Numbered from the stretch's first letter, positions 17,075 to 42,714 are shown. The stretch: DNA of 50,376 bases from Bdellovibrionales bacterium (GCA_043716655.1 JAYSYF010000076.1:1-50376); one strand, 5' to 3'. A program made the numbers and translations. Notes: generated by a model not told the origin, from the letters alone.

Positions 17075-17099
17075 AATTTGTTACGCTCTCTCAAAAAAA

Positions 17100-17486: not shown

Positions 17487-17492
17487 GTCGCC

Positions 17493-17523
17493 AGTATGAA
17501 CCTGCCCTCTATTGGAAGGTCAA
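17493..17523 (-). promoter_or_regulatory. MerR-type promoter with CueR box driving cueR-MCO
   Basis: Minus strand reads TTGACC (17523..17518), a 19-nt spacer, then CATACT (17498..17493). The spacer holds the dyad ACCTTCC-N7-GGCAGGT. The -10 ends 6 nt before the cueR ATG. Confidence 0.6.
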
Positions 17524-17601
17524 GCCCATGGCCCTCCTCCGCGTTCAATCTATTGAAAACAAGGGGCTTTGGCGCAACCTTACAATTAACTAGAATGTTC
17601 A

Positions 17602-17632
17602 TTGACCTTCCAACCATTGGAAGGCCGATGAT
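17602..17632 (+). promoter_or_regulatory. MerR-type promoter with CueR box driving the copper ATPase
   Basis: TTGACC (17602..17607), a 19-nt spacer, then GATGAT. The spacer holds the dyad ACCTTCC-N7-GGAAGGC, whose inner part CCTTCCAA-cca-TTGGAAGG is a perfect 8-3-8 repeat. This is the same architecture as the E. coli copA promoter as I remember it. Confidence 0.65.
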
Positions 17633-17674
17633 AGTTCTAAGGTTCTAAAAACTATGGCAGAAACGGCTTAAACA

Positions 17675-22297: not shown

Positions 22298-23460
22298 TCT
22301 TAGGAAACGTCGTCATCACTCTATTCTTAAGCGTGGCTCCAGCGCAGCAGCAGCAGCAGTCGGTGCATGCCCCTGCTCAGCCGACGGCGCCTCAACCACC
22401 CAGCAAACCAGCTTTGGTTACCGCTACAAAAAAGCCGATCGCCGATGAGGCTCGAGTAACAGTGAAGGTACCTCAGTCGGAGCAAGGAAAAATCGGGTTG
22501 AAGACGGCAAAAGCCGAAAGTTCAAAGCTCAATTTCACAATACGTACTGTTGGTTCTATATCAGCAGATCAAGGGCGACAAGCTCATGTGCACACAAGGC
22601 TTAACGGATGGATCGAGCGAATCTTTGTCGATGCCATTGGCAAACCAGTAAAGAAGGGTGAAGTCCTTTTCGAGCTATACAGTCCCGACTTAGTTTCCAC
22701 CCAGGAAGAATATCTTGCGGCCCGAAACGGAAGCGTAACCGGCAAAGAGATCGCCGCGGCGGCACTCGAGCGCTTGCGTGGATGGAGTGTTCCTGAATCT
22801 GAGATTCGTCGCTTGAAATCTTCTGGCAAAATGAAAAGAACGATTTCTTTTGAATCACCAGTGACGGGTTTCGTGGTGAATAAAACTGCGATTCAAGGGA
22901 TGTACATTACTCCGGACATGGAGCTCTATCATATAGCCGATCTCGCACGAGTCTGGATTGTTGTTACACTTTATGAGTCTGATATTAACTCGATTAAAAC
23001 CGGCGACACTGCGGTCATTAAGCTTCCCTACGACGAGTCGCGAACCTTTCAGGCTCCGATTTCATATATTTATCCCGAACTAGATGTTGAGACGCGCACC
23101 TCGAAGGCGCGGATCGAACTTGATAATAAGACGCAGGCCTTGAAGCCAGGGATGTTTGTGAATGTCGAAATTGCAAAAAGTCTAGGTGAAGCAATCACCG
23201 TTCCTGATGATGCCGTGATCGATACCGGAATTCGAAAATTAGTATTCCTGAAAAAATCGGACACCGAATTTGAACCACGAGAAATCAAAGTGGGGCCGCG
23301 GGTTGAAGGCCGCGTAGCTGTTTTGTCCGGACTCTCAGTAGGAACCGAAGTCGTCGTTAGTGCGCACTTCCTTCTCGATGCAGAAAGCAAAGTACAGGCG
23401 GCTCTGCAGAAGGGTTCCGCGACGCAACCTGGGCACGAGTCACATGGGAAGAAAAAATGA
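22294..23460 (+). CDS. cusB: RND periplasmic adaptor (CusB-like membrane-fusion protein)
   Basis: GTGA overlap with the upstream stop. N-terminal anchor, then RQAHVHTRLNGWIERIFVDAIGKPVKKGEVLFELYSPDL (lipoyl/barrel-sandwich motif), and VWIVVTLYESD and PGMFVNVEI beta-barrel motifs. Confidence 0.85.
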   Translation: MILGNVVITLFLSVAPAQQQQQSVHAPAQPTAPQPPSKPALVTATKKPIADEARVTVKVPQSEQGKIGLKTAKAESSKLNFTIRTVGSISADQGRQAHVHTRLNGWIERIFVDAIGKPVKKGEVLFELYSPDLVSTQEEYLAARNGSVTGKEIAAAALERLRGWSVPESEIRRLKSSGKMKRTISFESPVTGFVVNKTAIQGMYITPDMELYHIADLARVWIVVTLYESDINSIKTGDTAVIKLPYDESRTFQAPISYIYPELDVETRTSKARIELDNKTQALKPGMFVNVEIAKSLGEAITVPDDAVIDTGIRKLVFLKKSDTEFEPREIKVGPRVEGRVAVLSGLSVGTEVVVSAHFLLDAESKVQAALQKGSATQPGHESHGKKK

Positions 23461-26400
23461 TCGGCGCGATCATAACCTATTGCAGTCGAAACTCTCGACT
23501 CACGATCGCGTTAGCTCTAGCTCTTGCCCTTTGGGGTGGGTACTGCCTCAACAAAATGCGGATCGACGCAATCCCCGATCTCTCTGACACTCAAGTCATC
23601 ATCTTTACCGAGTGGATGGGGCGAAGCCCAGAGCTCGTCGAAGAACAAGTCACGTACCCACTCGTTACGTCAATGCTTGCATCGCCCAACGTTTCATTAG
23701 TTCGCGGCCAATCAATGTTCGGAATGTCTTTTGTGTATGTCGTCTTCGAGGACGGCACGGATTTATATTGGGCAAGATCTCGAGTTCTTGAATCTTTATC
23801 CAAGTTGTCGGGAAGTTTACCTCAAGGCATCAGTCCCTCGATTGGACCCGATGCCTCTGGCGTTGGCTGGGTCTATCAGTATGCTCTGGTTGATCCATCG
23901 GGTAAGCTTGGCCTTCAGCAAATCCGCACTTTTCAAGATTGGTATTTGAAGTACTGGCTTTCGTCGGTTCCAGGAGTTGCGGAAGTCGCATCGATTGGTG
24001 GATTTGAAAAGCAATACCAAGTGGAGATTGATCCAAACAAGCTTTCGGCACTTAAAATTCCAATCGAAAGAGTCATCGCGGCAATTCGAGAGAGTAACCG
24101 AGATGTAGGAGGAAGAACGCTCGAGATTAGCGAACGAGAATTTTATGTTCGTGGCCGCGGTTATATAAAAAGTCCTCAAGACCTCGAAGATGTCACGATT
24201 ACCACGGCCGGAGGCGGAGTTCCGATACGGATTTCTGATATTGGACGTGTGACAATTGGACCTCAAATACGAAGAGGTGTTACGGACTTCAACGGGGACG
24301 GCGATACCGTCGGCGGCGTAGTCGTTATGCGACAAGGGGCTGATGTCTCCAATACGATCGCTGCGGTTAAAAAGAAAATCGAGGAAGTTCAGCGTGCATT
24401 TCCGGCCGGGCTTGAAATTCGACCGGTCTACGATCGGTCAGGACTCATCAAAGAAGCTGTTTCTACACTTCGAAATAATATTGTCGAGGAAATGATCTTG
24501 GTCACGCTGGTTATCCTCGTTTTTCTTTTTCACGTGCGGAGCGCACTCGTCGTGGCTATCACGATGCCGCTCGCCATCCTGATCTCGCTCATCCCCATGT
24601 ATTACTTCAAGATCAGCCTAAACATCATGAGTATGGGCGGCATCATTTTGGCTATCGGAGATATCGTCGACGGCATCGTTATCTTCATCGAAAATAGCCA
24701 TAAGAAAATTTCGGAGTTTCCGTCACGCCCACGCAACGAACTGATTATCGAGGCCTGCAAAGAAATGGGACCGTCGATTTTTAGTGCGCTGCTGATCATC
24801 GCCGTATCTTTCCTTCCAATTTTCGCTCTCCAAGCCCAAGAAGGAAAACTCTTTCACCCGCTCGCCTACACGAAAACATTTGCGATGTTGGCGGCAGCAC
24901 TGGTGACGATTACCGTGACCGCTCCGTTGATAATTCTGTTCGTCAAAGGCCGAATCCGGTCTGAAACTGAGAATCCAGTCAATCGTCTACTTGCTAAGAT
25001 CTATGAACCGATCTTGAGGTTTAGTCTTCGTCGGCGAAAACTTGTTCTCGCACTTCTTGCCGCAGTCGTCGTTCTCACGGGCGCTGCATTCACGAGATTG
25101 GGTTCTGAGTTCATGCCACCGCTTTGGGAAGGCGACCTTCTGTATATGCCCATTACGGTGCCAGGAATGTCGATAACTGCCGCCGCAGACTTGGTGCAAC
25201 GGCAGGGAAAAGCCATCCGCTCGATTCCAGAAGTTGAAAGCGTATTCGGAAAAGCCGGAAGATATGAAACCCCTACTGATGCGGCACCGCTTTCGATGTT
25301 TGAATATACGGTACGCTTAAAGCCTCGAGATCAGTGGCGAGAAGGTCTTGATGAAGAGCGTCTCCTCAAGGAACTCGACACCGCTGTCGCTGTTCCAGGA
25401 ATCAACCGAGCGTGGACGAAACCGATTCGGGGGCGGATCGATATGCTTTCAACGGGTATTCGTACGCCGGTCGGAATTAAAGTTTTTGCGCCCACCCTGC
25501 CCGCTATCGAAAAAATCGGACTCGAGCTCGAAGCAGCACTTGTTAATGTCCCCGGTACTCGAAGCGTGTACGCCGAACGTCTGGGCGGCGGCTCGTATCT
25601 AGATTTCGATCCTGATCGAAAGTCACTGCAAAGATACGGACTTAATGTCGGTGATGCTCTCAACGTCATAGAGACGGCGATTGGCGGAATGGAAGTGAGT
25701 CAGACCGTTGAGGGTCGTGAGCGCTACACGATCAATGTGCGCTACCCGAGAGAGTTGCGAGATACGATTGAAAAAGTCGGACGTATCCTTGTTGCGACGT
25801 CGACCGGTGCACAAGTACCATTGAGCCAGCTTGGAAAACTTTCGACGCAGTCTGGAGCACCGATGATCTTCAACGAAAATGGTTCGCTCGTGGGTTACGT
25901 TTACATCGACCTAGAGGGCCGTGATCCTGGAAGCTACGTTAAAGATGCTAAAGAAGCCGTAGCAAAGGCAGTAAGTCTTCCGCAGGGATCTTACATAAAG
26001 TGGACTGGGCAATACGAGAATTTGGCTCGCATGCAAGAGCGGATGAAGATCATCCTTCCGTTAACATTAGTCCTCATATTCGCGTTTCTATATTTTGGCG
26101 TTCGGTCGCTCTCGAAAACGATCATGATCATGGTCTCTGTGCCGCTATCTCTCATCGGCGGAATTCTTTTGATGTGGACTCTTGGGTACAACACGAGTGT
26201 TGCTGTATGGGCAGGCGCGATTGCTCTCATTGGTGTCGCAGTAGAAACAGCAGCGATCATGATTGTCTTTCTTGATCGCGCTTGGAAGTACAGGGCTGAA
26301 AGCAACAAGCTCAATACAGGATCAGATTTCATTGAGGCCACAATAAGTGGCGCGCAAGGAAGTCTTCGACCGGTCCTCATGGCTGTATCGATGAACATAT

Positions 26401-26576
26401 TTGGTCTAATGCCTGTGATGTTGGCTACAGGAATCGGTGCGGACGTCATGAAGCGAATAACGTCGCCGATGTTTGGCGGTTTGATCACGCTAGCGGTTTT
26501 AACACTCATTATTTTACCGATTATTTACATGATGAATGAAACCCGTCATAACCACCGTTCGAGGAAAATATCATGA
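23457..26576 (+). CDS. cusA: HME-RND Cu(I)/Ag(I) efflux pump CusA
   Basis: 1039 aa, 12-TM RND. The stretch EFMPPLWEGDLLYMPITVPGMSI...APLSMFEY...RGRIDMLSTGIRTPVGIKV aligns with E. coli CusA, including all three Met of the M573/M623/M672 cluster. ATGA overlap with cusB. Confidence 0.95.
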   Translation: MIGAIITYCSRNSRLTIALALALALWGGYCLNKMRIDAIPDLSDTQVIIFTEWMGRSPELVEEQVTYPLVTSMLASPNVSLVRGQSMFGMSFVYVVFEDGTDLYWARSRVLESLSKLSGSLPQGISPSIGPDASGVGWVYQYALVDPSGKLGLQQIRTFQDWYLKYWLSSVPGVAEVASIGGFEKQYQVEIDPNKLSALKIPIERVIAAIRESNRDVGGRTLEISEREFYVRGRGYIKSPQDLEDVTITTAGGGVPIRISDIGRVTIGPQIRRGVTDFNGDGDTVGGVVVMRQGADVSNTIAAVKKKIEEVQRAFPAGLEIRPVYDRSGLIKEAVSTLRNNIVEEMILVTLVILVFLFHVRSALVVAITMPLAILISLIPMYYFKISLNIMSMGGIILAIGDIVDGIVIFIENSHKKISEFPSRPRNELIIEACKEMGPSIFSALLIIAVSFLPIFALQAQEGKLFHPLAYTKTFAMLAAALVTITVTAPLIILFVKGRIRSETENPVNRLLAKIYEPILRFSLRRRKLVLALLAAVVVLTGAAFTRLGSEFMPPLWEGDLLYMPITVPGMSITAAADLVQRQGKAIRSIPEVESVFGKAGRYETPTDAAPLSMFEYTVRLKPRDQWREGLDEERLLKELDTAVAVPGINRAWTKPIRGRIDMLSTGIRTPVGIKVFAPTLPAIEKIGLELEAALVNVPGTRSVYAERLGGGSYLDFDPDRKSLQRYGLNVGDALNVIETAIGGMEVSQTVEGRERYTINVRYPRELRDTIEKVGRILVATSTGAQVPLSQLGKLSTQSGAPMIFNENGSLVGYVYIDLEGRDPGSYVKDAKEAVAKAVSLPQGSYIKWTGQYENLARMQERMKIILPLTLVLIFAFLYFGVRSLSKTIMIMVSVPLSLIGGILLMWTLGYNTSVAVWAGAIALIGVAVETAAIMIVFLDRAWKYRAESNKLNTGSDFIEATISGAQGSLRPVLMAVSMNIFGLMPVMLATGIGADVMKRITSPMFGGLITLAVLTLIILPIIYMMNETRHNHRSRKIS

Positions 26577-31337: not shown

Positions 31338-31379
31338 AGCACGGGCCAGATGAGTCTTTCGACTCATCTGGCCCGTGCT
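31338..31379 (+). terminator. perfect 19-bp-stem hairpin after the six-gene operon
   Basis: AGCACGGGCCAGATGAGTC-tttc-GACTCATCTGGCCCGTGCT, 16 nt after the stop. No U-tract follows on either strand. Confidence 0.5.
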
Positions 31380-31686
31380 ACGGTTCGGAGTTTGCTTACC
31401 GAGGCACAACGAAACCAAAAAAATTCTTACATTTCTCATATTTGGCGCGCTGATAATATCTGGATGTGCACACTCTGCAAAGAAAGGCAGCGTCGCGATG
31501 AAGGTGAGCGACTCGGAGGCGCACGTTTGCCTGGACAAAGCGAAGGTTGGCGATCGATTGACGTTGTTCAGAAATAGCTGTCCGACTAAGGATACAACGT
31601 TGCGAGGGAGCAGCAACTTAGGGATGTGTGAAAAAGTACGTGTTGGCCAAGGAACCGTGTACCGATCGAAGAAGGTAACTTCGTAG
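31375..31686 (+). CDS. small lipoprotein, unknown function (start uncertain)
   Basis: The frame encodes KKILTFLIFGALIISGC (lipobox). The only in-frame start is GTG 31375, inside the hairpin, and it would give a 31-aa signal. Four further Cys in the mature part. Confidence 0.45.
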   Translation: MLRFGVCLPRHNETKKILTFLIFGALIISGCAHSAKKGSVAMKVSDSEAHVCLDKAKVGDRLTLFRNSCPTKDTTLRGSSNLGMCEKVRVGQGTVYRSKKVTS

Positions 31687-31704: not shown

Positions 31705-32268
31705 TCATTCTCTGGCGAGATTCAAATTCATCCGCGTTTTGATTGTAATCTCGTCAGCAACTTTAATCCCCATATATGTAGGCACCGCGATCTGATAGTC
31801 GGACACCAGAACTTTGAATTCTGTCGAGACGCTGGGCGTATCTTTGTTAGTGTCGACTTCCGCAGTTCCCTTCACCGGCCTCTCGACACCGTGTAGACTT
31901 AATTTTCCCTGAAACGGAACATTCGAATAAACTTTCTTTGTTTTTAAAAAGTCGGCTGGCAGGTCGATGTTCTCAATTTCAATCCAAGCCTCTGCATACT
32001 TCGCAGTCTCCAAATACTTTTCTTTCATGTGCTGATCGCGAAGCGAGACGCCAGTTGTGAAAGCATCCATTTTCACACCAAAGCGCCCCTTCACTTTATT
32101 ATCTTCGAGCTCGAAGTTTCCGCTGAGCTTTCCGCCGGTTCCTTTGATTTTTAAAAAGCTCGGCTTCCCCACAGCGTGAAACTCAACCTCCGACGTTTGC
32201 TTCGAAAGATCGACTTGCTGTACGGCTCCCCAGGACATCGGTAACAATAACAATAGTATTTTCAGCAT
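31705..32268 (-). CDS. YceI-family periplasmic protein
   Basis: Start at ATG 32268 gives signal MLKILLLLLPMSWGA. SEVEFHAVGKPSFLKIKGTGGKLSG..., GVSLRDQHMKEKYLE and GKLSLHGVERPV are typical YceI motifs. Confidence 0.85.
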   Translation of the reverse strand: MLKILLLLLPMSWGAVQQVDLSKQTSEVEFHAVGKPSFLKIKGTGGKLSGNFELEDNKVKGRFGVKMDAFTTGVSLRDQHMKEKYLETAKYAEAWIEIENIDLPADFLKTKKVYSNVPFQGKLSLHGVERPVKGTAEVDTNKDTPSVSTEFKVLVSDYQIAVPTYMGIKVADEITIKTRMNLNLARE

Positions 32269-32276
32269 TTCGCCCC

Positions 32277-33452
32277 TTACTTTACGATGAGTTGTCCGGT
32301 TGAAAAGCCGCTGCTTCCGTGAAATCCACAAGTGAAAGAAAAACTGCCAGCGCTTTCAAGCTGAACCACTTGCGAGGTCTTCGATCCACGATCGGCCATC
32401 AAATCGAGATCCAGTTCGCCAGAATCGAATTTAAACATTTTGTCTGTTGCGGTAAGGACGATTTCGATCGTCTGACCTTCTTTCGCTTCGACAACGAGAG
32501 GCGAGCAAGTGCCGTCGGCTTGACCTGCGATATCGATGGTCACGTCTGGAATGCGAACAAGATTGATCACGCGCTCTTTCTGCCACTGCTTCGCAATGTC
32601 GAACGCTGTTTGACCTTTTCTATTTTTAAGTCGTCGATCCGGTCGAGCCAGCAAAATATCTTTTACTGTCCAGTCGTCTCCGTAAGACGTTGCCCACATG
32701 AGCGGCGTCATTCCCTGGCTATCTTGAAAATCAAAATTAGCTTCGGCGGCGATGAACGAGTCATAGACGTCACGCACTTCATGCTTCGCGGCTTTCAAAA
32801 GAGCAGTTTCTTTTTTCATCGGATCCACGATGTCGACAAATGCGCCCGCCGAAATGAGCTTGTCCACGATTTGTGGGAGGCTCGTTAGCGAGTGAGGCGC
32901 TGGCGTCATGTTGCCCCCGCAATTTCCATCGATAGCGTAAAGCAGCGGCGTGCAACCGTATTTATCCGTGAAGTTCACATCTGCGCCACATCCCAATTGA
33001 TAATTCACGGCTTGCAACGATTGATAGAAACGACCTTCACGAAGAACTGTAATCAACTGTTCGCTCGGGTTTTTTCCGCATGACGGTGCGGTCGGAATGG
33101 TGCCGTTGATTTTGCACTCGAGCTCGGTGCCCGCAAAATAAAGCCCATGCGTGAAAGCGTTCCTCTTCACACTCCCCTGCTCAATTAAGAAATCAAGGTG
33201 TGACATTCCACTTGAGTCCGAATACCGCAAAGTATTTGGCGCCGGATACGAAACTCTGGTCAGCTTCAAACCCTGGGTCACAGAACCACTGGGACTAATA
33301 AACCGAATATCACCTTTGTTTTTTTGCGGCAGAATCGTAAGTACGACTCGAGTCTTCTGACTCGAGTCGGTGTAGCCCGTGCACGAAACGGTTTCAGCCT
33401 TCGCGCTGACTGTGGCGGTCAAAATCGCTCCCAAAATCAAAACTGGTTTCAT
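32277..33452 (-). CDS. exported ankyrin-repeat protein with C-terminal cupredoxin-like domain
   Basis: Signal MKPVLILGAILTATVSAKA. Ankyrin repeats (GADVNFTDKYGCTPLLYAI, GAFVDIVDPMKKETALLKAAKH, ANFDFQDSQGMTPLMWAT, NRKGQTAFDIAKQ). The last ~85 aa follow the cupredoxin pattern (VVEAKEGQTIEIVLTATD...AGSFSFTCGFHGSSGFSTGQLIVK). Confidence 0.8.
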   Translation of the reverse strand: MKPVLILGAILTATVSAKAETVSCTGYTDSSQKTRVVLTILPQKNKGDIRFISPSGSVTQGLKLTRVSYPAPNTLRYSDSSGMSHLDFLIEQGSVKRNAFTHGLYFAGTELECKINGTIPTAPSCGKNPSEQLITVLREGRFYQSLQAVNYQLGCGADVNFTDKYGCTPLLYAIDGNCGGNMTPAPHSLTSLPQIVDKLISAGAFVDIVDPMKKETALLKAAKHEVRDVYDSFIAAEANFDFQDSQGMTPLMWATSYGDDWTVKDILLARPDRRLKNRKGQTAFDIAKQWQKERVINLVRIPDVTIDIAGQADGTCSPLVVEAKEGQTIEIVLTATDKMFKFDSGELDLDLMADRGSKTSQVVQLESAGSFSFTCGFHGSSGFSTGQLIVK

Positions 33453-33469
33453 GTTCCCCCCGGCTACGG

Positions 33470-34150
33470 CTAATTCGCGCCGTTACTTATCCACTCTCTA
33501 ATAATTCTAATTTGCTCCGGCGCGAGCGCCGAATAACCTTCTTCAGCTAACGGCATTCGTTTATGGTCGGTCCGCTCAAGTGCGATCAATAATCCCGATT
33601 CGTCGACGTTTACGAGATCGATTAACATAAGTGGCGAATCCAGCAGCGACTGACGATCAAGCAAAATCTGTTTTCCAGTTCCCGTCGGATGATGGCAGGT
33701 CAGGCAGACCGGTTCGAAAATGTGTTGTCGAATCGATTCATAAGTTGCAACTAGCGGTTCGACCATAGGCGGTGGCTTTGGGCTGTTGAGTGGTGCGCCA
33801 GCGCGCAGCCAGTTGCCTAGCCATCTTCGTTCGTCATCTCGAAGCTGCCCACGCTTCGGCATCGTTTGCTCGACAAAAACGGCTTTGTCGATCGTAGCCA
33901 GTTGCGAAAACACGCTCTCGTAAGTTTCGAGATTCACCTTCTCACCGGCGCGATGACAGCTCACACATCTTGGCTGAAGAACTCGCGAGTTGATGAAACC
34001 GTAGTTCATCATGCTCGCCTTTTCTTCTGGCAACAGCTCACCGTAACTTCGAGCGCTTGCGTCCCCGGTGCCTTTCAACACCGAGTAATTGCAGGAACTC
34101 AAGGTGCCAATGACCGCCACCGAAATGAGAGTGCGAACTAAGAAATGCAC
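33470..34150 (-). CDS. dihaem c-type cytochrome lipoprotein
   Basis: Lipobox GTLSSC and two CxxCH motifs (CVSCH, CLTCH), each in a repeat resembling the planctomycete-type cytochrome c domain (VLQPRCVSCHR...LETYE / IFEPVCLTCHH). Confidence 0.8.
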   Translation of the reverse strand: MHFLVRTLISVAVIGTLSSCNYSVLKGTGDASARSYGELLPEEKASMMNYGFINSRVLQPRCVSCHRAGEKVNLETYESVFSQLATIDKAVFVEQTMPKRGQLRDDERRWLGNWLRAGAPLNSPKPPPMVEPLVATYESIRQHIFEPVCLTCHHPTGTGKQILLDRQSLLDSPLMLIDLVNVDESGLLIALERTDHKRMPLAEEGYSALAPEQIRIIREWISNGAN

Positions 34151-34158
34151 CCTAATTC

Positions 34159-34731
34159 TTAAGGTACAATGGCTGTGGAATTTAGAGACCCGTCCAGATT
34201 GACGTACACATTAAGCGTCTGAGTCTGGGCCGAAGAACGAACCTGAAGAACTGCGACGTCCTTACCGCCTAGCGAACCTTTGACAAGATCGAGGCTTGAG
34301 AAATCCTTGAAGTAAGGAGCAATGGTAGCGTCCGTGCCATTGTCCAAGACAAAGTGCATTCCGTTTTCGACAAGTTCTCCAGCATTCTTTGGCGCCCAAC
34401 CCACGTCAGGTCCGGCGACTCCGCCCGTTGAAGCTTTGAAAGATAGCGGTTTGCCATCCTTATCGAATTGCAACTCGAGTTGAATTGCTTGACCTGAAGT
34501 TGGTTGAGTCTGAGACGAGACCGATTTGAACGCCACCGGCGCCGGACCCGAGACTTCGGTGACCTCGATTTTTGACAGTCGCTTCTGAAACGAACCATCG
34601 ATCTTCCCGAGCGTTACGAGCCGATCGATTCGATGTGCTGAGAGTTCACCTATCTTCGCTTTCGAGACCGACTGCGCCATCGCAACTTGTGAACCTAAAA
34701 GTACCGACGCGAACAACAGTGCAAATTTCAT
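34159..34731 (-). CDS. exported hypothetical protein
   Basis: Signal MKFALLFASVLLGSQVAMAQ. 24 nt downstream of csoR. No recognisable motif. Confidence 0.65.
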   Translation of the reverse strand: MKFALLFASVLLGSQVAMAQSVSKAKIGELSAHRIDRLVTLGKIDGSFQKRLSKIEVTEVSGPAPVAFKSVSSQTQPTSGQAIQLELQFDKDGKPLSFKASTGGVAGPDVGWAPKNAGELVENGMHFVLDNGTDATIAPYFKDFSSLDLVKGSLGGKDVAVLQVRSSAQTQTLNVYVNLDGSLNSTAIVP

Positions 34732-34755
34732 ATTCCCCCCTTGAAACTGTGATTC

Positions 34756-35094
34756 TTAGAAAACTAATTTAATGATCTCTTGGATTTTCTCTTCGGACTT
34801 GAACGCATCCTTGCTTGCTAAGGCCGTACTGACACAGCCTCGTAAATGCGCCTTTAAGACTTCTGCTTCCGTCGCGCGAAGTCCTGCCGATGCCGCTTTC
34901 AGCTGCGCGATGATGTCAGGGCAGTATCTTCGGTCAAGAATCATTCGCTCGATCCCCTCGATTTGCCCTTTAACTCGGTTAAGCCTCTTAATGTGTTCCG
35001 AATGGTCCGGATGTTCATGTGCAACGGAACTGAGTGCGTTCGCTCTCGGTTGCACTTTTTTTACTTTTGCTCGCGCCGTCTGCTTTTCTAACAT
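34756..35094 (-). CDS. csoR: CsoR-family Cu(I)-sensing repressor
   Basis: DUF156 core RLNRVKGQIEGIERMI, with ligand pattern Cys (RRYCPDI) plus His-x3-Cys (KAHLRGC), which is the CsoR x-C-H-C fingerprint. His-rich N-tail HEHPDHSEH. Confidence 0.9.
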   Translation of the reverse strand: MLEKQTARAKVKKVQPRANALSSVAHEHPDHSEHIKRLNRVKGQIEGIERMILDRRYCPDIIAQLKAASAGLRATEAEVLKAHLRGCVSTALASKDAFKSEEKIQEIIKLVF

Positions 35095-35128: not shown

Positions 35129-35166
35129 TTGACACATACCCTACCGGGGCATAGTTTAGCCGTCAA
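35129..35166. promoter_or_regulatory. overlapping divergent promoters sharing a CsoR-type operator
   Basis: Plus strand: TTGACA (35129..35134), 17 nt, TAGTTT (35152..35157). Minus strand: TTGACG (35166..35161), 17 nt, TAGGGT (35143..35138). Between them lies ATACCCTACCGGGGCATA (35136..35153), which resembles the ATACCC..GGGGTAT CsoR boxes I remember from Bacillus and Listeria. Confidence 0.6.
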
Positions 35167-35187
35167 CATACTTTAAAAAGGGTGACG

Positions 35188-35949
35188 ATGAAACATTTTG
35201 GAATTCTTCTGGGACTTGGGGTCATTGCTTTATGGGGACAGCCATCGTCTGCGCATGGGACACAGGAAAGTCGTGTCGAGATCGAGCCGGTCGCGACATC
35301 GACCGTCGCCGGTACCACGCAGTATGCGTTTCAACTCGTGGATACGAGCAAAAGCAGTCTCATTGGCGACGTGGAACTTAACATCTCACACGAAATGAAA
35401 CTTCATTTGATTGTTTATGATCCGTCGCTCGGCGAATTCCAGCACGTGCATCCCGAATTCGACGGAACCAACTGGATGGTGACACTGCAATTTGCGGTCA
35501 ATGGAAATTACTGGGTTTGGGCGCAGGGGGAGCTTGCGGTCGACGGCGAAAAATTTTCTTCTTCAACAAGACTTGATGTCACGAATGGAGCCGCACAGCT
35601 GCCCGCGCCACCGGTGCTCGGTGACCGGCGATTGGGAAGCCTCGGAGTTTCAGCCGTTGATATCGGCAAAACAAAAATCACGGCAGGCAAGATGGTAATG
35701 CTGGACTTAAAGATGTCGCGAACAGACGGCACGTCTCCGCAACTTGCACCATACTTGGGAGCATTTGCACACATCATCGCGACAACCTCAGACGGTGACG
35801 AACTCATTCACGTTCATCCGATGGGGACCACCGCTACTGCCGGAATGATCCACGCGACATTCCCAGCAGCCGGTGACTATCGCCTGTGGGTCCAATATAT
35901 AGATGGCGGCAACCTGATCACGATACCCTTATCGGTCAAAGTTAATTGA
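35188..35949 (+). CDS. exported protein with two tandem beta-rich domains, each carrying an HVHP motif
   Basis: ATG 35188 (AAGGG upstream) gives signal MKHFGILLGLGVIALWGQPSSAHG. Repeat 1 is ...KLHLIVYDPSLGEFQHVHPEF...NGNYWVWAQ. Repeat 2 is ...AFAHIIATTSDGDELIHVHPMG...AGDYRLWVQY. Confidence 0.7.
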   Translation: MKHFGILLGLGVIALWGQPSSAHGTQESRVEIEPVATSTVAGTTQYAFQLVDTSKSSLIGDVELNISHEMKLHLIVYDPSLGEFQHVHPEFDGTNWMVTLQFAVNGNYWVWAQGELAVDGEKFSSSTRLDVTNGAAQLPAPPVLGDRRLGSLGVSAVDIGKTKITAGKMVMLDLKMSRTDGTSPQLAPYLGAFAHIIATTSDGDELIHVHPMGTTATAGMIHATFPAAGDYRLWVQYIDGGNLITIPLSVKVN

Positions 35950-36073
35950 TCCCAAACTCAGGAACGCGACACGCTTCATCTCGATACACCGGTTCCGCTA
36001 GTGAATCGCTCAAAGAAATGTCGCGAAGGATTAGATTGAAATCGTGAAGATTAGATGGTGTCATAATAGAACG

Positions 36074-36445
36074 ATGCGTGTGCTGATATACTTTTTTTGC
36101 ATTTCGATTTTTGCTCTAAGCGGGCTAATGCCCGCATCGGCACTCGCACATGCGGATAGCGCCTCACACGTCGCTATCATTGTCGTAGTAACTCACTCCC
36201 ATGAGCACGTCCACGAAGCACACCATCACACAGATTCGAAACACTCTGCACCAGCGGAAGGACATCATTCCGACCAACACTCGCATGAGCATTTTGTTTC
36301 TTGCGCTCATCCAATTTGGCTTGAGGCCTCGCGTTTTGAAACAGCAGCAATCGAGTTTATCAACCCGCACTCGTTTATTTTTAAACGTTCAGTGCCGGCG
36401 ACTCGAGCCCTAGGCTCAATTTTCCGCCCTCCGATCCACGCTTAG
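36074..36445 (+). CDS. small His-rich exported/membrane protein
   Basis: ATG 36074 gives signal MRVLIYFFCISIFALSGLMPASALA. The mature part has about 20 His (THSHEHVHEAHHHTDSKHS...GHHSDQHSHEH). It lies immediately upstream of the RND gene. Confidence 0.55.
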   Translation: MRVLIYFFCISIFALSGLMPASALAHADSASHVAIIVVVTHSHEHVHEAHHHTDSKHSAPAEGHHSDQHSHEHFVSCAHPIWLEASRFETAAIEFINPHSFIFKRSVPATRALGSIFRPPIHA

Positions 36446-36549
36446 TCCCCTCCTCTAATAAAATTTTTCCCACAAAATCTTTCGTTTTGTAATCATCGGC
36501 CGTTCTACGTGCGTAATCATACGACACGTCGAACGGTCAGGAGAAAACC

Positions 36550-39500
36550 ATGCTGAACGCGCTCATCCGCTTTTCGCTGAAGAAGCGACTCTTAGTCGGT
36601 CTCATTGCACTTGCACTTTGTGTTTACGGAGCATGGCTGCTGCAGAGCCTGCCCGTCGACGTGTTTCCAAATTTGAACCGACCAACAGTCACAGTCCTTA
36701 CGGAAGCGCATGGGCTTGCTCCGGAAGAAGTGGAAACGCTCGTGACCCTTCAGATCGAAACGGTCCTGAACGGAACTCCCGGAGTCTTGCGACTTCGATC
36801 GAGCAGCGGAATCGGCATTTCGATCGTCTACATCGAGTTTGACTGGGGAACCGAAATATTTCGAAATCGACAACTAGTTGCAGAGAGACTTCAGCTTTTG
36901 GAAGGAAGGCTGCCGCCACGGATGCAGCCCGTAATGGGACCGGTCACGTCGATCATGGGAGAAATCCAGTTTGTTGGTGTCACGAGCCCCGACGATAAGA
37001 TTTCACCGATGGAGCTTCGAACACTCGCCGACTGGACGCTTCGCCCACGGTTGATGACAATTCCAGGCATCAGCCAAGTTGTCGTTATGGGCGGCGAAGT
37101 GAAACAATACCAAATTCACATCTCCAACGAAAAGCTTCAGCGAAAAAACGTATCGCTCGAAGACCTCAAAGAAACGCTGGCTAAAATCAGCGAGAATACG
37201 ACCGGCGGTTTCATCGACATCGGAGAAAAGGAATTTTTAATTCGGCCCATCGGTCGGGCGTTAACTCTCGAGGATATCGAAAACTCTCTCGTGGCAATGC
37301 ACTTTGGTAAACCGGTGCTCGTCAAAGATGTCGCCGAAGTTAAGATCGCTGCAAAACCCAAACGCGGCGAAGGTAGCATCAACGGCAAGCACTCAGTCAT
37401 CATGACACTTCAAAAACAACCAAGTGCGAGCACTATTGAGCTTACACGCGCGATCGAACGCGAACTAAAGGCGATGGAAAAGTCTTTGCCAGCAGGAGCG
37501 AAACTCGAAACCGACCTGTTTAAGCAGTCGCATTTTATCGAATCCGCCATTGGCAATGTGGAAGAAGCGCTTCGTGATGGAATCATCATGGTCGCCATCA
37601 TTCTATTTTTATTTCTAATGAACTTCCGAACCACTGGGATCACGCTCGTCGCTATCCCCTTGAGCCTTCTCATCACCGCAATTATTTTCCACATTTTCGG
37701 TATTACGATCAACACGATGACGCTTGGAGGTCTTGCCATCGCCATCGGCGAGTTGGTCGACGACGCGATTGTCGATGTTGAAAACGTTTTTAGACGGCTT
37801 CGCGAGAACCGCACTGCCGGATCGCCGAAAGGAAACTTGCGAGTCATCTATGAAGCTTCGAGCGAGGTTCGAAATTCAATCGTGCTCTCGACGATCATCG
37901 TAGTTCTCGTATTCATTCCGCTTTTCGCTCTAGGCGGAATCGAAGGGCGATTGTTTGTTCCACTCGGCGTGGCGTATATCATCTCGATTCTCGCTTCACT
38001 TTTTGTTTCGCTAACGGTGACCCCCATTCTCTGTTCGTATCTGTTACCGAACTCGAAGGCCGTACACGATCAGAACGATGGCCGACTGGTTCGAGGCCTG
38101 AAGCGCTTCGCAGTGAAAATTCTAGATTGGACACTGCCACGACCGATTTTAATCCTCGGCCTCGCTGCGCTCTTGCTTGCATTGAGTCTTGCGCTCTTAC
38201 CAATGATGGGTCGAAATTTTCTGCCCGATTTTAACGAAGGCACTGCGACGATAGGAATCGCTGCGGCACCAGGCATTTCGCTAGCCGCGTCGGACAAGCT
38301 TGGAATCAAAATCGAAGAGGCTATACTCTCGGTTCCGGAAGTGAAATCCACGGTTCGTCGAACCGGACGCGCCGAAATGGACGAGCACGCAGAAGGAGTC
38401 CACTGGCACGAGGTTGATGTCGATTTCAAACCGGATGGTCGCGATCGTGAAGTCGTCCTTCAAGAGATTCGAGAAAAGATCGAAAAAGTGGGCGACGTTT
38501 CCGTCAACCTCGGTCAACCCATCAGTCATCGTCTGGATCACCTGCTTTCTGGCGTGCGAGCCCAGATCGCAATTAAAATTTTCGGGCCCGACCTCGGCGA
38601 ACTTCGCCGTCTTGGTGGCGAGACTTTCGATGCACTTCAAGGAATCGATGGCGTTGTAGATCTACAGACCGAGCCACTCGTCCTAATTCCGCAATTAAAA
38701 ATTGCGATCGATCGGGAAGGTGGAAGTAAACTCGGAATCCGAAGCGGCAGTCTCGCGGAAGATTTGGAAATTGCCCTCAACGGTGCCACGGTCGCGCAGA
38801 TTCTCGAAAATCAAAGGATGTTCGACGTCACCGTGCGGCTCGACGAAAGCTCTCGCGCGACGCCAGAACGAATTTCGGAAACTCTCGTCAAGTTCCTACC
38901 GACGGCGCAAGCAGTACGGCTGGGGGAGGTTGCGAATGTGTATGAAGGCACTGGGCCAAACATGATCAATCGAGAGGACATGCAACGGAGGATCGTGATT
39001 TCGGCAAACACACACGGTCGCGATTTGGGCAGTGTCGTGGGCGACATTAAAACAGCGCTCGACACGAAAATTAAATTGAGTGAAGGCTACTTCATTAAAC
39101 TTGGTGGGCAATTCGAAAGCCAGCAAGCCGCTTCCAAGCGAATTTTTTGGCTGGGACTGCTTGCAGTGTTGGGAATTTTCTTTGTTCTTTTCGTGCACTT
39201 CAAGTCCACCATTTTGAGTCTTCAGGTCATGATGAACATTCCGCTCGCGCTGATTGGCAGTATCGTCGCGATCTTTATTACAGAGAGAACGCTTTCCGTG
39301 GCGACTCTCGTTGCCTTCATCACCCTCTGCGGAATTTCGACTCGAAACGGAATTTTGTTGATCAGCCACTACCTGCACTTGATGAAGGAAGAAGGCGAAG
39401 AGTTTGACGCGAAGATGGTCATTCGCGGCTCGCTCGAGAGAATGGTGCCTGTGCTTATGACGGCTTCAACGGCAGCGTTAGCACTTGTTCCGCTACTTCT

Positions 39501-39684
39501 GTCCAGAGGCCAGCCTGGCAAAGAGATTCTATATCCTGTCGCAGTCGTAATCGTAGGAGGTCTCGTATCGTCGACGTTACTCGATCTCGTCGTAACGCCG
39601 ACCGTTTTCTTGAGATTTGGTAAGAAGGCCGTTTCAAAGTATTTAAAGGACAGTCCACAACACGAACAAGGAGAATGGAAATGA
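36550..39684 (+). CDS. HME-RND heavy-metal efflux pump (CzcA/CusA superfamily, not the Cu(I) Met-cluster type)
   Basis: 1044 aa, AGGAGA SD, 12-TM RND layout. TM4 motif GGLAIAIGELVDDAIVDVEN. The positions equivalent to the CusA Met triad are not Met (FNEGTATIGIA...). Confidence 0.95.
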   Translation: MLNALIRFSLKKRLLVGLIALALCVYGAWLLQSLPVDVFPNLNRPTVTVLTEAHGLAPEEVETLVTLQIETVLNGTPGVLRLRSSSGIGISIVYIEFDWGTEIFRNRQLVAERLQLLEGRLPPRMQPVMGPVTSIMGEIQFVGVTSPDDKISPMELRTLADWTLRPRLMTIPGISQVVVMGGEVKQYQIHISNEKLQRKNVSLEDLKETLAKISENTTGGFIDIGEKEFLIRPIGRALTLEDIENSLVAMHFGKPVLVKDVAEVKIAAKPKRGEGSINGKHSVIMTLQKQPSASTIELTRAIERELKAMEKSLPAGAKLETDLFKQSHFIESAIGNVEEALRDGIIMVAIILFLFLMNFRTTGITLVAIPLSLLITAIIFHIFGITINTMTLGGLAIAIGELVDDAIVDVENVFRRLRENRTAGSPKGNLRVIYEASSEVRNSIVLSTIIVVLVFIPLFALGGIEGRLFVPLGVAYIISILASLFVSLTVTPILCSYLLPNSKAVHDQNDGRLVRGLKRFAVKILDWTLPRPILILGLAALLLALSLALLPMMGRNFLPDFNEGTATIGIAAAPGISLAASDKLGIKIEEAILSVPEVKSTVRRTGRAEMDEHAEGVHWHEVDVDFKPDGRDREVVLQEIREKIEKVGDVSVNLGQPISHRLDHLLSGVRAQIAIKIFGPDLGELRRLGGETFDALQGIDGVVDLQTEPLVLIPQLKIAIDREGGSKLGIRSGSLAEDLEIALNGATVAQILENQRMFDVTVRLDESSRATPERISETLVKFLPTAQAVRLGEVANVYEGTGPNMINREDMQRRIVISANTHGRDLGSVVGDIKTALDTKIKLSEGYFIKLGGQFESQQAASKRIFWLGLLAVLGIFFVLFVHFKSTILSLQVMMNIPLALIGSIVAIFITERTLSVATLVAFITLCGISTRNGILLISHYLHLMKEEGEEFDAKMVIRGSLERMVPVLMTASTAALALVPLLLSRGQPGKEILYPVAVVIVGGLVSSTLLDLVVTPTVFLRFGKKAVSKYLKDSPQHEQGEWK

Positions 39685-40127
39685 AGAGTCTCATCATGTT
39701 TTTGATATTAGGTATTGCAAGCTTGGCTCAGGCACATGACGAAGGCCATGGACCGAAGCTTGCCGACACCGGAAAGTATGGAGGCCTCGTGTCGGCCGTC
39801 GTTTTGAAAGCCGATGCGACGAAAGGTGCGGCCGCAACGCTTGTCTACAAAGCCGAACTTGTAAGATCAGCGGATGGAACGACGCGTGTTTATCTTTACG
39901 ACACGGCAATGAAGCCGGTCGATTCGAAAGGCTTCGACGCTAAAGGTTCGGCATCGCTTGCCGCAAAGGTAAAGGGCAAGTGGAAGTCAGTCGATTTTCC
40001 CATGGTTCTTAAAGATAAATCGTTTGTCGGCACCATGCCGAAACCAGAAGCGAAACCATATAATATCGACGTCACGTTAAAGCATGACGGCAAAGAGCTA
40101 CTCACGGCGTTCGACAATCTCGACTAA
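39681..40127 (+). CDS. small exported protein between the RND and OMF genes (unknown family)
   Basis: ATG 39681 (AAGGAG 7 nt upstream, ATGA overlap with the RND stop) gives signal MKSLIMFLILGIASLAQA. The mature N-terminus is HDEGHGPK, the protein is beta-rich, and there is no coiled coil. Confidence 0.65.
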   Translation: MKSLIMFLILGIASLAQAHDEGHGPKLADTGKYGGLVSAVVLKADATKGAAATLVYKAELVRSADGTTRVYLYDTAMKPVDSKGFDAKGSASLAAKVKGKWKSVDFPMVLKDKSFVGTMPKPEAKPYNIDVTLKHDGKELLTAFDNLD

Positions 40128-40138
40128 GGAGTTTTAAA

Positions 40139-41407
40139 ATGAAGTCACAGACCGCTCTCATCATCTCGGTTTTGACCGGATTAACTCTGGCGACATCGGT
40201 CGGCGAAGCGCTTTCGATTCGATTCGAAGATCTTCCTCGCCTCGTCACTGAGAAAAATGAAAACGTCAAAGCGTCGGCATTTGCCATGAAAGCACAGTCG
40301 GAACGAACGGGTTTTTTGGCCCGTTCGTTTCTTCCTCAGCTGTCGGCCTCACTGGGGCAGGAGGAATTCAAAACCGGATCGTCACCGTCCGCTCAACAAG
40401 AGTATTGGCGAATTGAAGGTTCACTGAATTTATACCGAGGCGGTCGTGACAAACTTGAAAATCAAATTCGAAACGGACAACGCGAGTTAGCGGGACTCAA
40501 TCACTCGAGCGAAATACAAAGAGAGTTACGGGAAGCCAAGCGAGCGTATTGGCAGGTGCTGGCAATCGCCAAATTGATCGCAGAGCGAAAAGAGGCTCGC
40601 GATAAAAATGAAGCCAATCTCAAGTCTGCACGTCGGCGAGCGGGGGCCGGGATAACAACAACTGCGGACGCCGCGCAGTTCGAACTCCACAAGTTAACGC
40701 TCGAGCGTGATATTAAGAGGTTAGGTCTCGAACACCACCGCATTGTGAACCTGTTGAGCGTCGCGCTCGCTCTGGACGAACACGAGAATATCGAGGTGGT
40801 TGGAGATTTTCCAGCTATAGAAAGCGCGACGCCTGTGAAAACACTGGAAGTCGGGAAGCAGATCGAGGTTCGGAATTACCAAGAGCTTCAACGAGTCGAC
40901 GAACTAAGAGCGTCAAGATTGGCGCGCTGGTTCTTACCAAGACTCGATCTGTACACAAGTTATGGATTGCCGTCGCTAACAGACGAATACGACAGAGCGC
41001 TGCGAAAACAGCAGGAGTGGACCGCAGGAGTTCGAGTCACCATTGATCTCGGCCAAAGCATTGAAGAGCGAAGGGAGGCAGGCGCTCGATCTGCGGATGC
41101 TAGTGCTGCGCAAATGCGGGGCGCGCACAGACTTCGTGAAGTCATCGCCAATGACCACGATTTGCGACAGGACATTGCGGTAACCGCCGATTTGATCAAG
41201 GACTCTGAAAACGCCGTTGCCCAAGCGCAGAAGTTTTTAAAACTCACGGAGGCTGAGTATTCGCGAGGAGCCAAAAATGGACCGGATCTTCTCGAGGCTT
41301 TTCGGACTTACTTCGAGTTTCGCGAGCGTCGAATCGATTACCTTCGCGAATACTTCGAAACGAAGGCGCAACTTGAAAGTTTAGTGGCTGGAGCTGAACC
41401 TTCGTGA
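40139..41407 (+). CDS. outer-membrane efflux factor (TolC family)
   Basis: AAGGAG SD, signal MKSQTALIISVLTGLTLATSVGEA, two helix-rich OEP repeats (e.g. LYRGGRDKLENQIR, AQKFLKLTEAEYSRGAKNGPDLLEA). Confidence 0.85.
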   Translation: MKSQTALIISVLTGLTLATSVGEALSIRFEDLPRLVTEKNENVKASAFAMKAQSERTGFLARSFLPQLSASLGQEEFKTGSSPSAQQEYWRIEGSLNLYRGGRDKLENQIRNGQRELAGLNHSSEIQRELREAKRAYWQVLAIAKLIAERKEARDKNEANLKSARRRAGAGITTTADAAQFELHKLTLERDIKRLGLEHHRIVNLLSVALALDEHENIEVVGDFPAIESATPVKTLEVGKQIEVRNYQELQRVDELRASRLARWFLPRLDLYTSYGLPSLTDEYDRALRKQQEWTAGVRVTIDLGQSIEERREAGARSADASAAQMRGAHRLREVIANDHDLRQDIAVTADLIKDSENAVAQAQKFLKLTEAEYSRGAKNGPDLLEAFRTYFEFRERRIDYLREYFETKAQLESLVAGAEPS

Positions 41408-42714
41408 AAAAGCTTTCCTTAACTTCTCGGATGTTGCTCGGCCGATTGCTCACGCGGTCGGGCGATCAGGCGTGGGACTTTGCGGTTCCGATCGTGCTCT
41501 TGCATTTGATGCCTGGCGAACTTCGCGTGGCCGCCCTCTATTTTTTGCTTATTAGAATTGCGACAGTCATCTTTCTCCCGCGTCTCTCAATGTTGATCGA
41601 TCGCTTCGACCGCATGAAGTCAGTGTCGTTAGGTATCGTTCTTCAACTTGCTGGCGTCGTTGGAGGCTTCGTTAGCGTCGGTTTTCTCCCGACCGGAAAC
41701 GTCGACTATTTACAGTCCATGAACTTCATCATCATGTTCACACTTCTGGTCCTCAGCGGAATCGTAAGTCAGCTTGGTTCAAGCTTTATGGACATTGCGA
41801 TTGCGAATGATCTTGTACCGTCGACTTTCCAAGGAACGGCACTCACAAAATTCAATAGCCGCCTCCGACAAGTGGACCTAGCAACCGAAGTGGGTTCACC
41901 GATCGTCACGGGACTTTTGCTACTCGTATCGACCACTGCCTATCCCCTACTTGGCTTCGCACTTGTTGCTCTTTGGAACGTGCTTTCGTTTTTCCCAGAG
42001 TATTTGATATTAAAATCGGTATTCACAGAAAGAACCGACCTCAAGGAAAAACCAATTCTCTTAGATCCGTCGAAAACAAAACCGATCTTAGTAAAGATGC
42101 GCGACGGATGGCGTTCGTTTTTTCGTCAGCCTATCGCTCCGGTTATGCTTGCGTACGCGGTTCTCTGGCTTTCAGTTTTAAGCCCGCACGGCGTGCTTCT
42201 TACGGCGTTTTTGAAAGACGGCTGGCGTTTGCCGGAATGGTCGATCGGTGTATTTCGCGGACTCGGCGCTGTTTTCGGGCTGATGGCAACGCTGCTCGTA
42301 CCGATTTTAGCAAAACGCATGTCGATTGAAAAATCGAGTCTTGTATTCCTCGCCATTCAATCGGTCAGCCTGATGATAGCACTTGGGTTCTTCTTCGTCG
42401 GCGACACCGTTGGGCAAATCGGTTTTCTGGTGGCTGTCTTGTTCTCGCGGATAGGGCTCTACGGATTTAGTCTTGGAGAGATGCAGATTCGACAAACAGC
42501 GATTCCCACGAATGCGCGCGGAGAAATCAACGGTTTCGCGTCCTCTCTAACTGCACTCGCAACGATCGGGCTATATTCTGCGGGCGTCGGAATACCGTCG
42601 ACTAGCGATTTCAAGTATCTGATTGTTTTGTCAGTGGGTTTTGTCTTGAGTGCACTCGCCGTGTACACCGTGTGGTATCTTAAAAAAACCGATGAACGCG
42701 CTATTTTAAAGTAA
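41404..42714 (+). CDS. ferroportin-like (SLC40/FPN family) MFS divalent-metal exporter
   Basis: GTGA overlap with the OMF stop. About 12 TM helices. The N-terminal RSGDQAWDFAVPIVL matches the ferroportin GDxxWxFAv signature. Size is similar to the characterised Bdellovibrio ferroportin homologue (from memory). Confidence 0.75.
   Translation: MKKLSLTSRMLLGRLLTRSGDQAWDFAVPIVLLHLMPGELRVAALYFLLIRIATVIFLPRLSMLIDRFDRMKSVSLGIVLQLAGVVGGFVSVGFLPTGNVDYLQSMNFIIMFTLLVLSGIVSQLGSSFMDIAIANDLVPSTFQGTALTKFNSRLRQVDLATEVGSPIVTGLLLLVSTTAYPLLGFALVALWNVLSFFPEYLILKSVFTERTDLKEKPILLDPSKTKPILVKMRDGWRSFFRQPIAPVMLAYAVLWLSVLSPHGVLLTAFLKDGWRLPEWSIGVFRGLGAVFGLMATLLVPILAKRMSIEKSSLVFLAIQSVSLMIALGFFFVGDTVGQIGFLVAVLFSRIGLYGFSLGEMQIRQTAIPTNARGEINGFASSLTALATIGLYSAGVGIPSTSDFKYLIVLSVGFVLSALAVYTVWYLKKTDERAILK

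Follow-up and report, generated by a model that had tools for sequence, protein, structure and literature searches.

What a copper-sensing repressor would control when the genes behind it encode exported proteins is the question raised by a locus in a Bdellovibrionales bacterium (GCA_043716655.1, JAYSYF010000076.1:1-50376; this whole stretch of 50,376 nucleotides is termed the window). Here csoR heads a string of genes for a 190-aa protein (U190), a dihaem c-type cytochrome (CytC), an ankyrin-repeat protein ending in a cupredoxin domain (AnkCup) and a YceI-family protein, and a heavy-metal RND pump is encoded divergently on its other side. The locus very probably specifies a periplasmic unit for copper handling that is induced by copper and acts together with the pump next to it. 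The fuller model, in which a relay induced by copper would oxidise Cu(I) in the periplasm via haem c and hand Cu(II) on to the pump, is in our judgement evenly balanced between being right and wrong as a whole.

Gene organisation and conservation

Five minus-strand open reading frames (ORFs) were found within 31705-35094, at the coordinates given in a preliminary description of the region, and downstream from csoR they are separated by 24, 8, 17 and 8 nt. The genes, gaps, export signals and domains listed in that description were all borne out by ORF calling, Pfam searches and reading of the sequence. In the features below and elsewhere, slashes in residue strings mark predicted processing junctions.

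34756-35094, minus strand: csoR, 112 aa, PF02583 (8e-24)
34159-34731, minus strand: U190, a 190-aa unknown, AxA signal peptide
33470-34150, minus strand: CytC, dihaem c-type cytochrome lipoprotein, 226 aa, GTG start, two CxxCH motifs, lipobox TLSS/C
32277-33452, minus strand: AnkCup (ankyrin-cupredoxin), 391 aa, signal peptide, Ank_2 (1.7e-13), Cupredoxin_1 (7e-08)
31705-32268, minus strand: YceI-family exported protein, last gene, 187 aa, PF04264 (4e-19)

Export signals were read by eye and consist of AxA sites on U190 and AnkCup, the lipobox on CytC and a short hydrophobic N-terminus on YceI, whose ATG start is placed 63 nt within a longer TTG ORF. Terminator-like matches inside the gene string number six, against 6.0 expected from shuffling, and so give no argument against a single transcript.

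A tblastn search with the window proteins showed the order csoR-U190-CytC-AnkCup to be kept, even where AnkCup identity falls to 33-38%, in about 26 loci, each from a different metagenome-assembled genome (MAG), collinearity being judged wherever the loci offered enough flank. This recurrence is far beyond chance. Base composition is even over the window (GC 0.47-0.54); chance adjacency and recent foreign insertion are ruled out by the conserved synteny together with this even composition. AnkCup has about 87 full-length relatives, and every source name that bears a taxon is Bdellovibrionales, Pseudobdellovibrionaceae or Bdellovibrio. When one genome was scanned for each species, 29 loci were obtained, 28 labelled Bdellovibrionota and one 'Pseudomonadota bacterium'. 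The U190, CytC and AnkCup families share the same narrow distribution, and the module has so far been found only in Bdellovibrionota and unclassified metagenome contigs.

Conservation of the neighbourhood, on which the preliminary description had staked its proposal, holds for csoR, U190, the cytochrome and AnkCup but not for YceI, which occurs mainly in closer relatives and a few others. YceI was therefore rejected as a core component, being present in a subset of loci only, and is best regarded as an accessory last gene. Its lipocalin-like PF04264 domain is clear (69.9 bits, cut-off 23.7). Convergent to yceI lie two overlapping small putative ORFs on the plus strand (31350-31686): a 75-aa frame, which is the choice of one public gene call, and a 103-aa frame with a lipobox-like IISGC.

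The module always lies among copper genes: RND pumps, CopA-type ATPases, multicopper oxidases and CopC/YtkA. In several relatives the operon continues via a 366-aa gene into a YHS/HMBD P1B ATPase. The most distant case has U190-CytC divergent from AnkCup, with a multicopper oxidase after AnkCup, and in one locus the cytochrome is monohaem. On the other side of csoR the relatives repeatedly carry a 255-aa gene, a small His-rich protein, an RND pump, a 130-150-aa protein and an outer-membrane efflux protein. Database matches placed none of the unknown proteins in a non-metal pathway, an outcome that would have told against the preliminary description. Many relatives also have a recurrent unannotated gene pair (about 201-211 aa and 305-312 aa) between csoR and U190, for example at L002 7123-8665, L041 2924-4467, L042 7409-8979 and the P0324 locus; the pair is absent from the window.

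U190 and its natural fusions

The strongest new evidence for the module comes from gene fusions involving U190 in distant relatives. Searched against 1.84 billion proteins, a U190 profile retrieved 215 cluster representatives (E<=1e-3). Of the 150 best, ten have U190 fused at its C-terminus to a PSCyt1 haem-c domain (scoring up to 40.6 bits) and two have it fused to a Cupredoxin_1 domain. Both cupredoxin fusions share the signature of AnkCup, C-x-P ... MF ... M ... C-G-x-H. The fused genes follow csoR or adjoin AnkCup, monohaem PSCyt1 genes, RND pumps, CopA-type ATPases or multicopper oxidases. Such natural fusions imply that U190, the cytochrome and the cupredoxin work as one functional unit, and they independently support cooperation between a cytochrome and a cupredoxin. 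An unfused, distant U190 lies amid csoR, a large cytochrome, YceI, a multicopper oxidase, YtkA and CopC; its source is given as Oligoflexia by NCBI nr and as Methylotenera sp. by the MAG record.

By its sequence U190 is a new protein family, for which this locus provides a first functional context. Profile searches found no Pfam, NCBIfam or PDB relative. The AlphaFold2 (AF2) model (pLDDT 89.7) predicts two domains, each of a helix plus four strands, and a fold search with it returned nothing at E<=1e-3, the best Foldseek match being at 6.6e-03 with a TM score of about 0.3 (double hot-dog and DUF2874 folds). Alignment of the two halves with hhalign gave no significant internal repeat. The protein has no Cys, and H33, R34, W112, E122 and H126 are invariant. 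Assignment to PepSY-like proteins or DUF6488 was rejected, as the DUF6488 match scores 14.4 bits against a cut-off of 27 and no fold match is significant. Some U190 homologues carry PF20098 in their records. An AxA/H junction occurs in about 24 of 150 U190-family representatives by a crude pattern count; the window U190 has the junction AMA/QSV, without an N-terminal His.

The dihaem cytochrome

CytC consists of two PSCyt1-like repeats, each of the form CxxCH...MP(K/P)...WI..GA, and is predicted to be a membrane-anchored dihaem c-type protein with His/Met ligation. Both CxxCH motifs and both distal MP(K/P) motifs are kept in 22 sequences (CytC and 21 homologues). One public gene call starts the protein at Met48, giving 179 aa; the lipobox region CNY is kept in the 21 homologues, which supports the longer GTG-start ORF already preferred in the preliminary description. 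The Pfam matches of CytC to Cytochrome_CBB3/PSCyt1 are weak (PF07635, 14.5 bits against a cut-off of 22), PF07635 is recorded for most of its homologues, and a PDB sequence search with CytC gave nothing useful.

AnkCup and its variant copper site

The AF2 model of AnkCup (pLDDT 90) shows a ten-strand N-terminal domain, ankyrin repeats and an eight-strand cupredoxin.

33078-33395, minus strand: N-terminal beta domain (aa 20-125), ten strands in the AF2 model, pLDDT about 90, invariant C24 and C113
32556-33077, minus strand: ankyrin-repeat domain (aa 126-299), Ank_2 (1.7e-13), invariant C125 (listed with this domain), C155, C167 and C178
32277-32555, minus strand: variant cupredoxin domain (aa 300-391) and stop codon, Cupredoxin_1 (7e-08)

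The N-terminal beta domain has no PDB sequence relative. The ankyrin domain matches DARPins in Foldseek (target-normalised TM score 0.8-0.88), and the fold search returned ankyrin designs only, being silent on both end domains. AnkCup has eight invariant Cys in all, which fits an oxidising compartment. Ank-cupredoxin is a rare exported ankyrin architecture, in which the ankyrin domain is a lineage-specific scaffold outside the core chemistry.

The C-terminal domain has a cupredoxin fold as judged from its Cupredoxin_1 score (32.9 bits, cut-off 27) and its eight strands modelled at pLDDT >90, and its profile matches the Bacillus anthracis cupredoxin 4hcf at 6.6e-06. The conserved residues are C316, M339, F340, M352, C375 and H378. 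The Cys and His that bind copper in 4hcf and plastocyanins are matched in the alignment by C375 and H378. The position of the N-terminal His ligand is occupied by F340 (or M339), and the axial Met position is variable. AnkCup has the invariant C316 in place of the Phe of the F-x-P motif, a residue that in cupredoxin structures packs next to the axial position. M339 and M352 are nearly invariant, the latter adjoining the position of the Glu ligand of nitrosocyanin in a weak alignment (E 0.07). The site is thus not a blue-copper centre. Either its Cys, His and Met residues (Cys/His/Met(/Cys)) form a soft site that would suit Cu(I), or C316 and C375 are joined in a disulfide.

Two known classes were considered for AnkCup and rejected. 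A classical blue-copper (type-1) protein would have the His...Cys-x(n)-His-x(n)-Met set, which is incomplete, C375 and H378 alone being kept; a member of the CopI family would have the H70/C125/H130/M135 motif, which is also incomplete, and AnkCup has no His/Met-rich stretch. The reading given in the preliminary description is upheld in part. Its copper module stands with added support, and the fusions favour cooperation between cytochrome and cupredoxin; the periplasmic electron transfer that it put forward is still a prediction, and the cupredoxin does not have a classical electron-transfer blue-copper site.

CsoR and its operator

CsoR scores 84 bits against PF02583 (cut-off 22.8), and a PDB profile search aligns it with Streptomyces lividans CsoR 4adz (1.6e-14) and with 4m1p, 3aai and 2hh7. 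Its ligand triad C58/H83/C87 corresponds to the YC...HLRxC of S. lividans and Geobacillus CsoR, and its best matches are Cu-CsoRs and RicR, with FrmR and RcnR matching weakly. It is to all appearances an ordinary Cu(I)-type repressor of the CsoR/RcnR family with the x-Cys-His-Cys fingerprint. A non-copper sensor of the CsoR family was rejected on the basis of the Cys-His-Cys triad.

35137-35151, strand not assigned: CsoR-type operator TACCCTACCGGGGCA (TACCC-N5-GGGCA, a pseudo-palindrome), by pattern match
35161-35166, minus strand: possible -35 hexamer TTGACG for the csoR operon, proposed by inspection of the sequence

The stretch 35129-35166, proposed earlier as a CsoR target, does contain a CsoR-type box (35137-35151). 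This is the sole exact match to the pattern in the 50-kb window and sits in the 87-bp divergent intergenic region, with csoR on one side and the 255-aa gene (35182) on the other. A relaxed box pattern was run over 517 kb, comprising the window and related loci, and gave 39 matches, 22 of which lie <=300 bp upstream of csoR, in regions that make up about 1.5% of the sequence searched. A related box occurs within this distance in 18 of 26 loci, and the divergent region of some loci has two. This enrichment supports autoregulation and control of both divergent units. The box would possibly overlap the spacer and -10 region of the putative csoR promoter, and it appears to match the published copZA-type CsoR operator. 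From sequence we infer that the operon is copper-responsive.

The csoR regulon had been described as unusual for its periplasmic cargo. The exported cargo is indeed present, but the regulon is less exotic than it seemed: the operator region also heads an operon for a CusA/CzcA-family RND pump, and in relatives the csoR operon runs on into the YHS/HMBD P1B ATPase noted above.

The divergent operon and its RND pump

35182-35949, plus strand: U255, exported, 255 aa, two H-x-H-P motifs, first gene of the divergent operon and conserved csoR neighbour
36044-36445, plus strand: His-rich CopL-like exported protein, 133 aa, NCBIfam CopL_fam (2.2e-05, below cut-off), DUF2946 (0.0021)
36550-39684, plus strand: RND2, CusA/CzcA-family heavy-metal RND pump, TIGR00914 (766.6 bits, cut-off 701.45)
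39675-40127, plus strand: U150, exported, 150 aa, predicted mature N-terminus HDEGHG, conserved after the pump
40139-41407, plus strand: outer-membrane efflux protein (OEP/TolC family), PF02321 (1.2e-20)

U255 has no Pfam or PDB match and is the divergent neighbour of csoR in most loci, distant ones included. U150 has a 48%-identical homologue in one related locus (L005), and unannotated ORFs of 130-147 aa hold its position in L002, L004 and L005. When aligned to Escherichia coli CusA, RND2 has G, W and H at the positions of M573, M623 and M672. Its motifs HAEGVH and SHRLDH are kept in all ten sequences compared (RND2 and nine related pumps). No HlyD-family match of the kind that a CusB-type membrane-fusion protein would give was found among the ORFs of 35182-42714 or in L002, L004 and L005. 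The pump gene is flanked by genes for conserved small exported proteins. On these sequence features the csoR-linked pump looks like an undescribed subtype of heavy-metal RND pump.

A His is predicted at the N-terminus after cleavage in U255, U150, the CopL-like protein and some U190 homologues, the junctions in the island being SSA/HGT, ALA/HADSASH and AQA/HDEGHG. Sites based on His, and an N-terminal His, suit Cu(II) better than Cu(I). A gene for a ferroportin-like MFS transporter (PF06963 FPN1, 2.4e-62; 41404-42714, plus strand) begins before the OEP gene has ended, overlapping its stop codon, as though it were transcribed together with the pump operon.

Other copper genes in the window

14930-17074: multicopper oxidase, CopA-type
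17100-17486: CueR, TIGR02044 (1.1e-52)
17675-20113: CopA-type ATPase, YHS/HMBD
20873-26576: classical CusCBA

CueR is divergent from the CopA ATPase and adjoins the multicopper oxidase, forming a second copper regulon at 14930-20113. The CusCBA pump keeps the M/M/M triad. Since the window holds both CueR and CsoR, the organism has two cytoplasmic copper sensors, and CsoR is reported to occur particularly in species without CueR (PMC7558416). In positions 1-14000 most ORFs have no Pfam match, the exceptions being YflT/ActD-like, BON, SPFH and DUF1996 domains.

Proposed mechanism and alternatives

In the relay model, rising cytoplasmic Cu(I) would cause CsoR to leave the shared box, releasing both divergent units. 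Periplasmic Cu(I) would be captured at the soft cupredoxin site of AnkCup, with the ankyrin scaffold holding the cupredoxin domain, and oxidised there, and the two haems would carry the electron off towards the respiratory chain. His-rich exported proteins encoded in the plus-strand unit would bind the Cu(II) so formed, and the His-site RND pump with its outer-membrane channel would then expel it; YceI would be an optional accessory, possibly a lipid or quinone binder. The oxidation direction is preferred because the His motifs of RND2 in place of the Met triad, and the exported proteins that start with His, suit Cu(II). The analysis establishes the gene content, its conservation, the fusions, the recurrence of the operator and the ligand patterns. 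Induction by copper, the binding of copper, the direction in which electrons flow and delivery to the pump are predictions at this stage. In its most specific form, U190, the dihaem CytC and the rebuilt cupredoxin would make up a haem-linked copper oxidoreductase of a new kind, a cuprous oxidase without a multicopper cluster or direct O2 binding, feeding a His-site pump that has no membrane-fusion protein; we put this forward tentatively and think it rather unlikely.

Several observations weigh against the relay. With two of the four classical ligands gone, the cupredoxin may bind copper without redox cycling, and C316-C375 could be a plain disulfide; a divergent homologue (P0085) keeps both Cys and has lost M339, M352 and H378. 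Orphan AnkCup paralogues occur without csoR, U190 or cytochrome (L022 5348-6547 and L023 1634-2833), and the L022 genome (isolate GFS_6366) also carries a U190-cytochrome-AnkCup cluster (L031). The His site of RND2 would fit Zn, Ni or Co as well as Cu(II). A multicopper oxidase and a classical CusCBA in the window would make a second cuprous oxidase redundant. Upstream of csoR, a scan for consensus sigma-70 sites called no good promoter, TTGACG included. All the source genomes are uncultured MAGs.

Electron flow could also run in reverse. The module would then be a periplasmic Cu(II) reductase, drawing electrons from the respiratory chain or quinol pool via CytC, with Cu(II) perhaps bound at the His and Glu of U190 and Cu(I) held by the cupredoxin before being passed to the pump. 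Soft cupredoxin ligands suit the carriage of Cu(I), and the conserved His and acidic residues of U190, which lacks Cys, suit Cu(II); the tight linkage of the module to an RND pump, the Met-triad CusCBA in the same window and the fact that YceI-family proteins are isoprenoid or quinone binders point the same way. However, the pump that is actually linked has His instead of the Met triad that binds Cu(I); CopA already delivers Cu(I) to the periplasm, so that the need for reduction is not obvious; and producing the more toxic species would be a risky form of detoxification. We consider the reductase unlikely. If instead no copper redox takes place, AnkCup and U190 would be copper buffers or chaperones, in the manner of a CusF-, CopC- or CopI-like sponge, and the cytochrome a copper-tolerant replacement carrier or a respiratory component protected under copper stress. 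The incomplete cupredoxin site agrees with this, as do the recent description of CopI as a modular copper buffer (PMC13308877) and the finding that periplasmic c-type cytochrome assembly is a target of copper (PMC4600104). Simple buffering is harder to reconcile with the repeated fusion of U190 to haem-c or cupredoxin domains, which argues for a joint catalytic or electron-transfer unit, and with the strict conservation of the cupredoxin Cys and His ligands, and it seems to us quite improbable.

The inducer or the substrate might also not be copper. The CsoR/RcnR family includes non-copper sensors, with FrmR and RcnR among the weak matches of this CsoR, so that persulfide, Ni/Co or an aldehyde might be sensed; equally, the His site of RND2 is not copper-specific, and Fe(II), Ag or Zn might be handled. 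Cupredoxin_1 domains also occur in the iron-uptake protein EfeO, and EfeO-type cupredoxins are among the weak PDB matches of the cupredoxin profile. Against these points stand the Cys-His-Cys Cu(I) triad of CsoR and its best matches to Cu-CsoRs and RicR, the apparent match of its box to the copZA-type operator, as well as neighbours that are consistently CopA-type YHS/HMBD ATPases, multicopper oxidases, CopC and CueR, and we regard a non-copper role as very improbable.

Significance

How the oxidation state of periplasmic copper is controlled at low oxygen is poorly understood. To our knowledge CopI and CopG are the sole alternatives characterised even in part for conditions under which multicopper oxidases cannot work. 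The present locus is a genetically well-defined candidate, backed by synteny and fusions: a regulator with its operator, a three-part exported unit with a cytochrome and a rebuilt cupredoxin, and a matched His-site pump. The parts are small, soluble or lipid-anchored, and suitable for work in vitro. If the relay model is true in its most specific form, the locus would represent a complete alternative pathway of copper detoxification, possibly energy-conserving, with Cu(I) oxidation wired into the respiratory chain. For predatory Bdellovibrio-like bacteria in wastewater and in waters rich in metals, the handling of copper is important.

Comparison with known systems

The preliminary description did not recognise the combination as a described system, and no description was found in literature searches on Bdellovibrio CsoR and copper resistance, DUF6488, YceI with copper, or ankyrin with cupredoxin. 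As far as these searches reach, the U190 family and the fusions, the joining of ankyrin repeats to a cupredoxin, the rebuilt copper site and a His-site pump that has no adaptor have not been described previously.

A parallel in operon design is the rus operon of Acidithiobacillus ferrooxidans, in which rusticyanin and the dihaem cytochrome c4 Cyc1 form a periplasmic wire from an oxidised metal ion to the respiratory chain. Both operons pair a cupredoxin with a dihaem c-type cytochrome. Rusticyanin, however, has a full type-1 site and serves to oxidise Fe(II) for energy under other regulation, and we know of no homology in the rus operon to U190 or to the ankyrin fusion. AnkB of Pseudomonas aeruginosa is a periplasmic ankyrin protein needed for KatB catalase activity and, like AnkCup, an exported bacterial ankyrin-repeat protein that supports a redox or haem enzyme; the comparison is by shared repeat type alone, and AnkB has no cupredoxin domain and no copper context. 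CusCFBA resembles the divergent unit in having a heavy-metal RND pump and an outer-membrane channel beside small periplasmic metal-binding proteins, but the csoR-linked pump has His motifs for the Met triad and is accompanied by neither a recognisable CusB-type adaptor nor a CusF.

The CsoR-copZA/cso regulons of Bacillus subtilis and Mycobacterium tuberculosis have in common with this locus a Cys-His-Cys CsoR beside a GC-rich pseudo-palindromic box, an arrangement consistent with autoregulation (PMC7558416), and in relatives of the locus the operon likewise ends in a P1B copper ATPase. They differ in their cargo, which here consists of four exported proteins and a divergent RND pump, with copA under its own CueR. 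CopI of Rubrivivax gelatinosus shares with AnkCup a periplasmic plastocyanin-like fold and a copper-resistance context, and a role under limitation of oxygen-dependent oxidases is possible for either protein (PMC4600104, PMC13308877). In CopI the H70/C125/H130/M135 motif is complete, and His-rich and His/Met-rich regions are present as well (PMC4600104, PMC13308877), whereas in AnkCup the first His and the Met are gone, and C316, M339, M352, the N-terminal beta domain and the ankyrin repeats are added. AnkCup also comes with a dedicated cytochrome and U190, unlike CopI.

The multicopper oxidases CueO, PcoA and CopA, and CopG, share the proposed periplasmic task of converting Cu(I) to Cu(II) and a location near copA and cus genes. 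CopG is a proposed Cu(I) oxidiser that contributes to anaerobic copper resistance and is linked to cusCBA (PMC7558416). Compared with these proteins, the module described here has neither a trinuclear copper cluster nor a thioredoxin-fold CxCC cluster, and in contrast to the multicopper oxidases it would give its electrons to haem c, not to O2 bound at a copper cluster.

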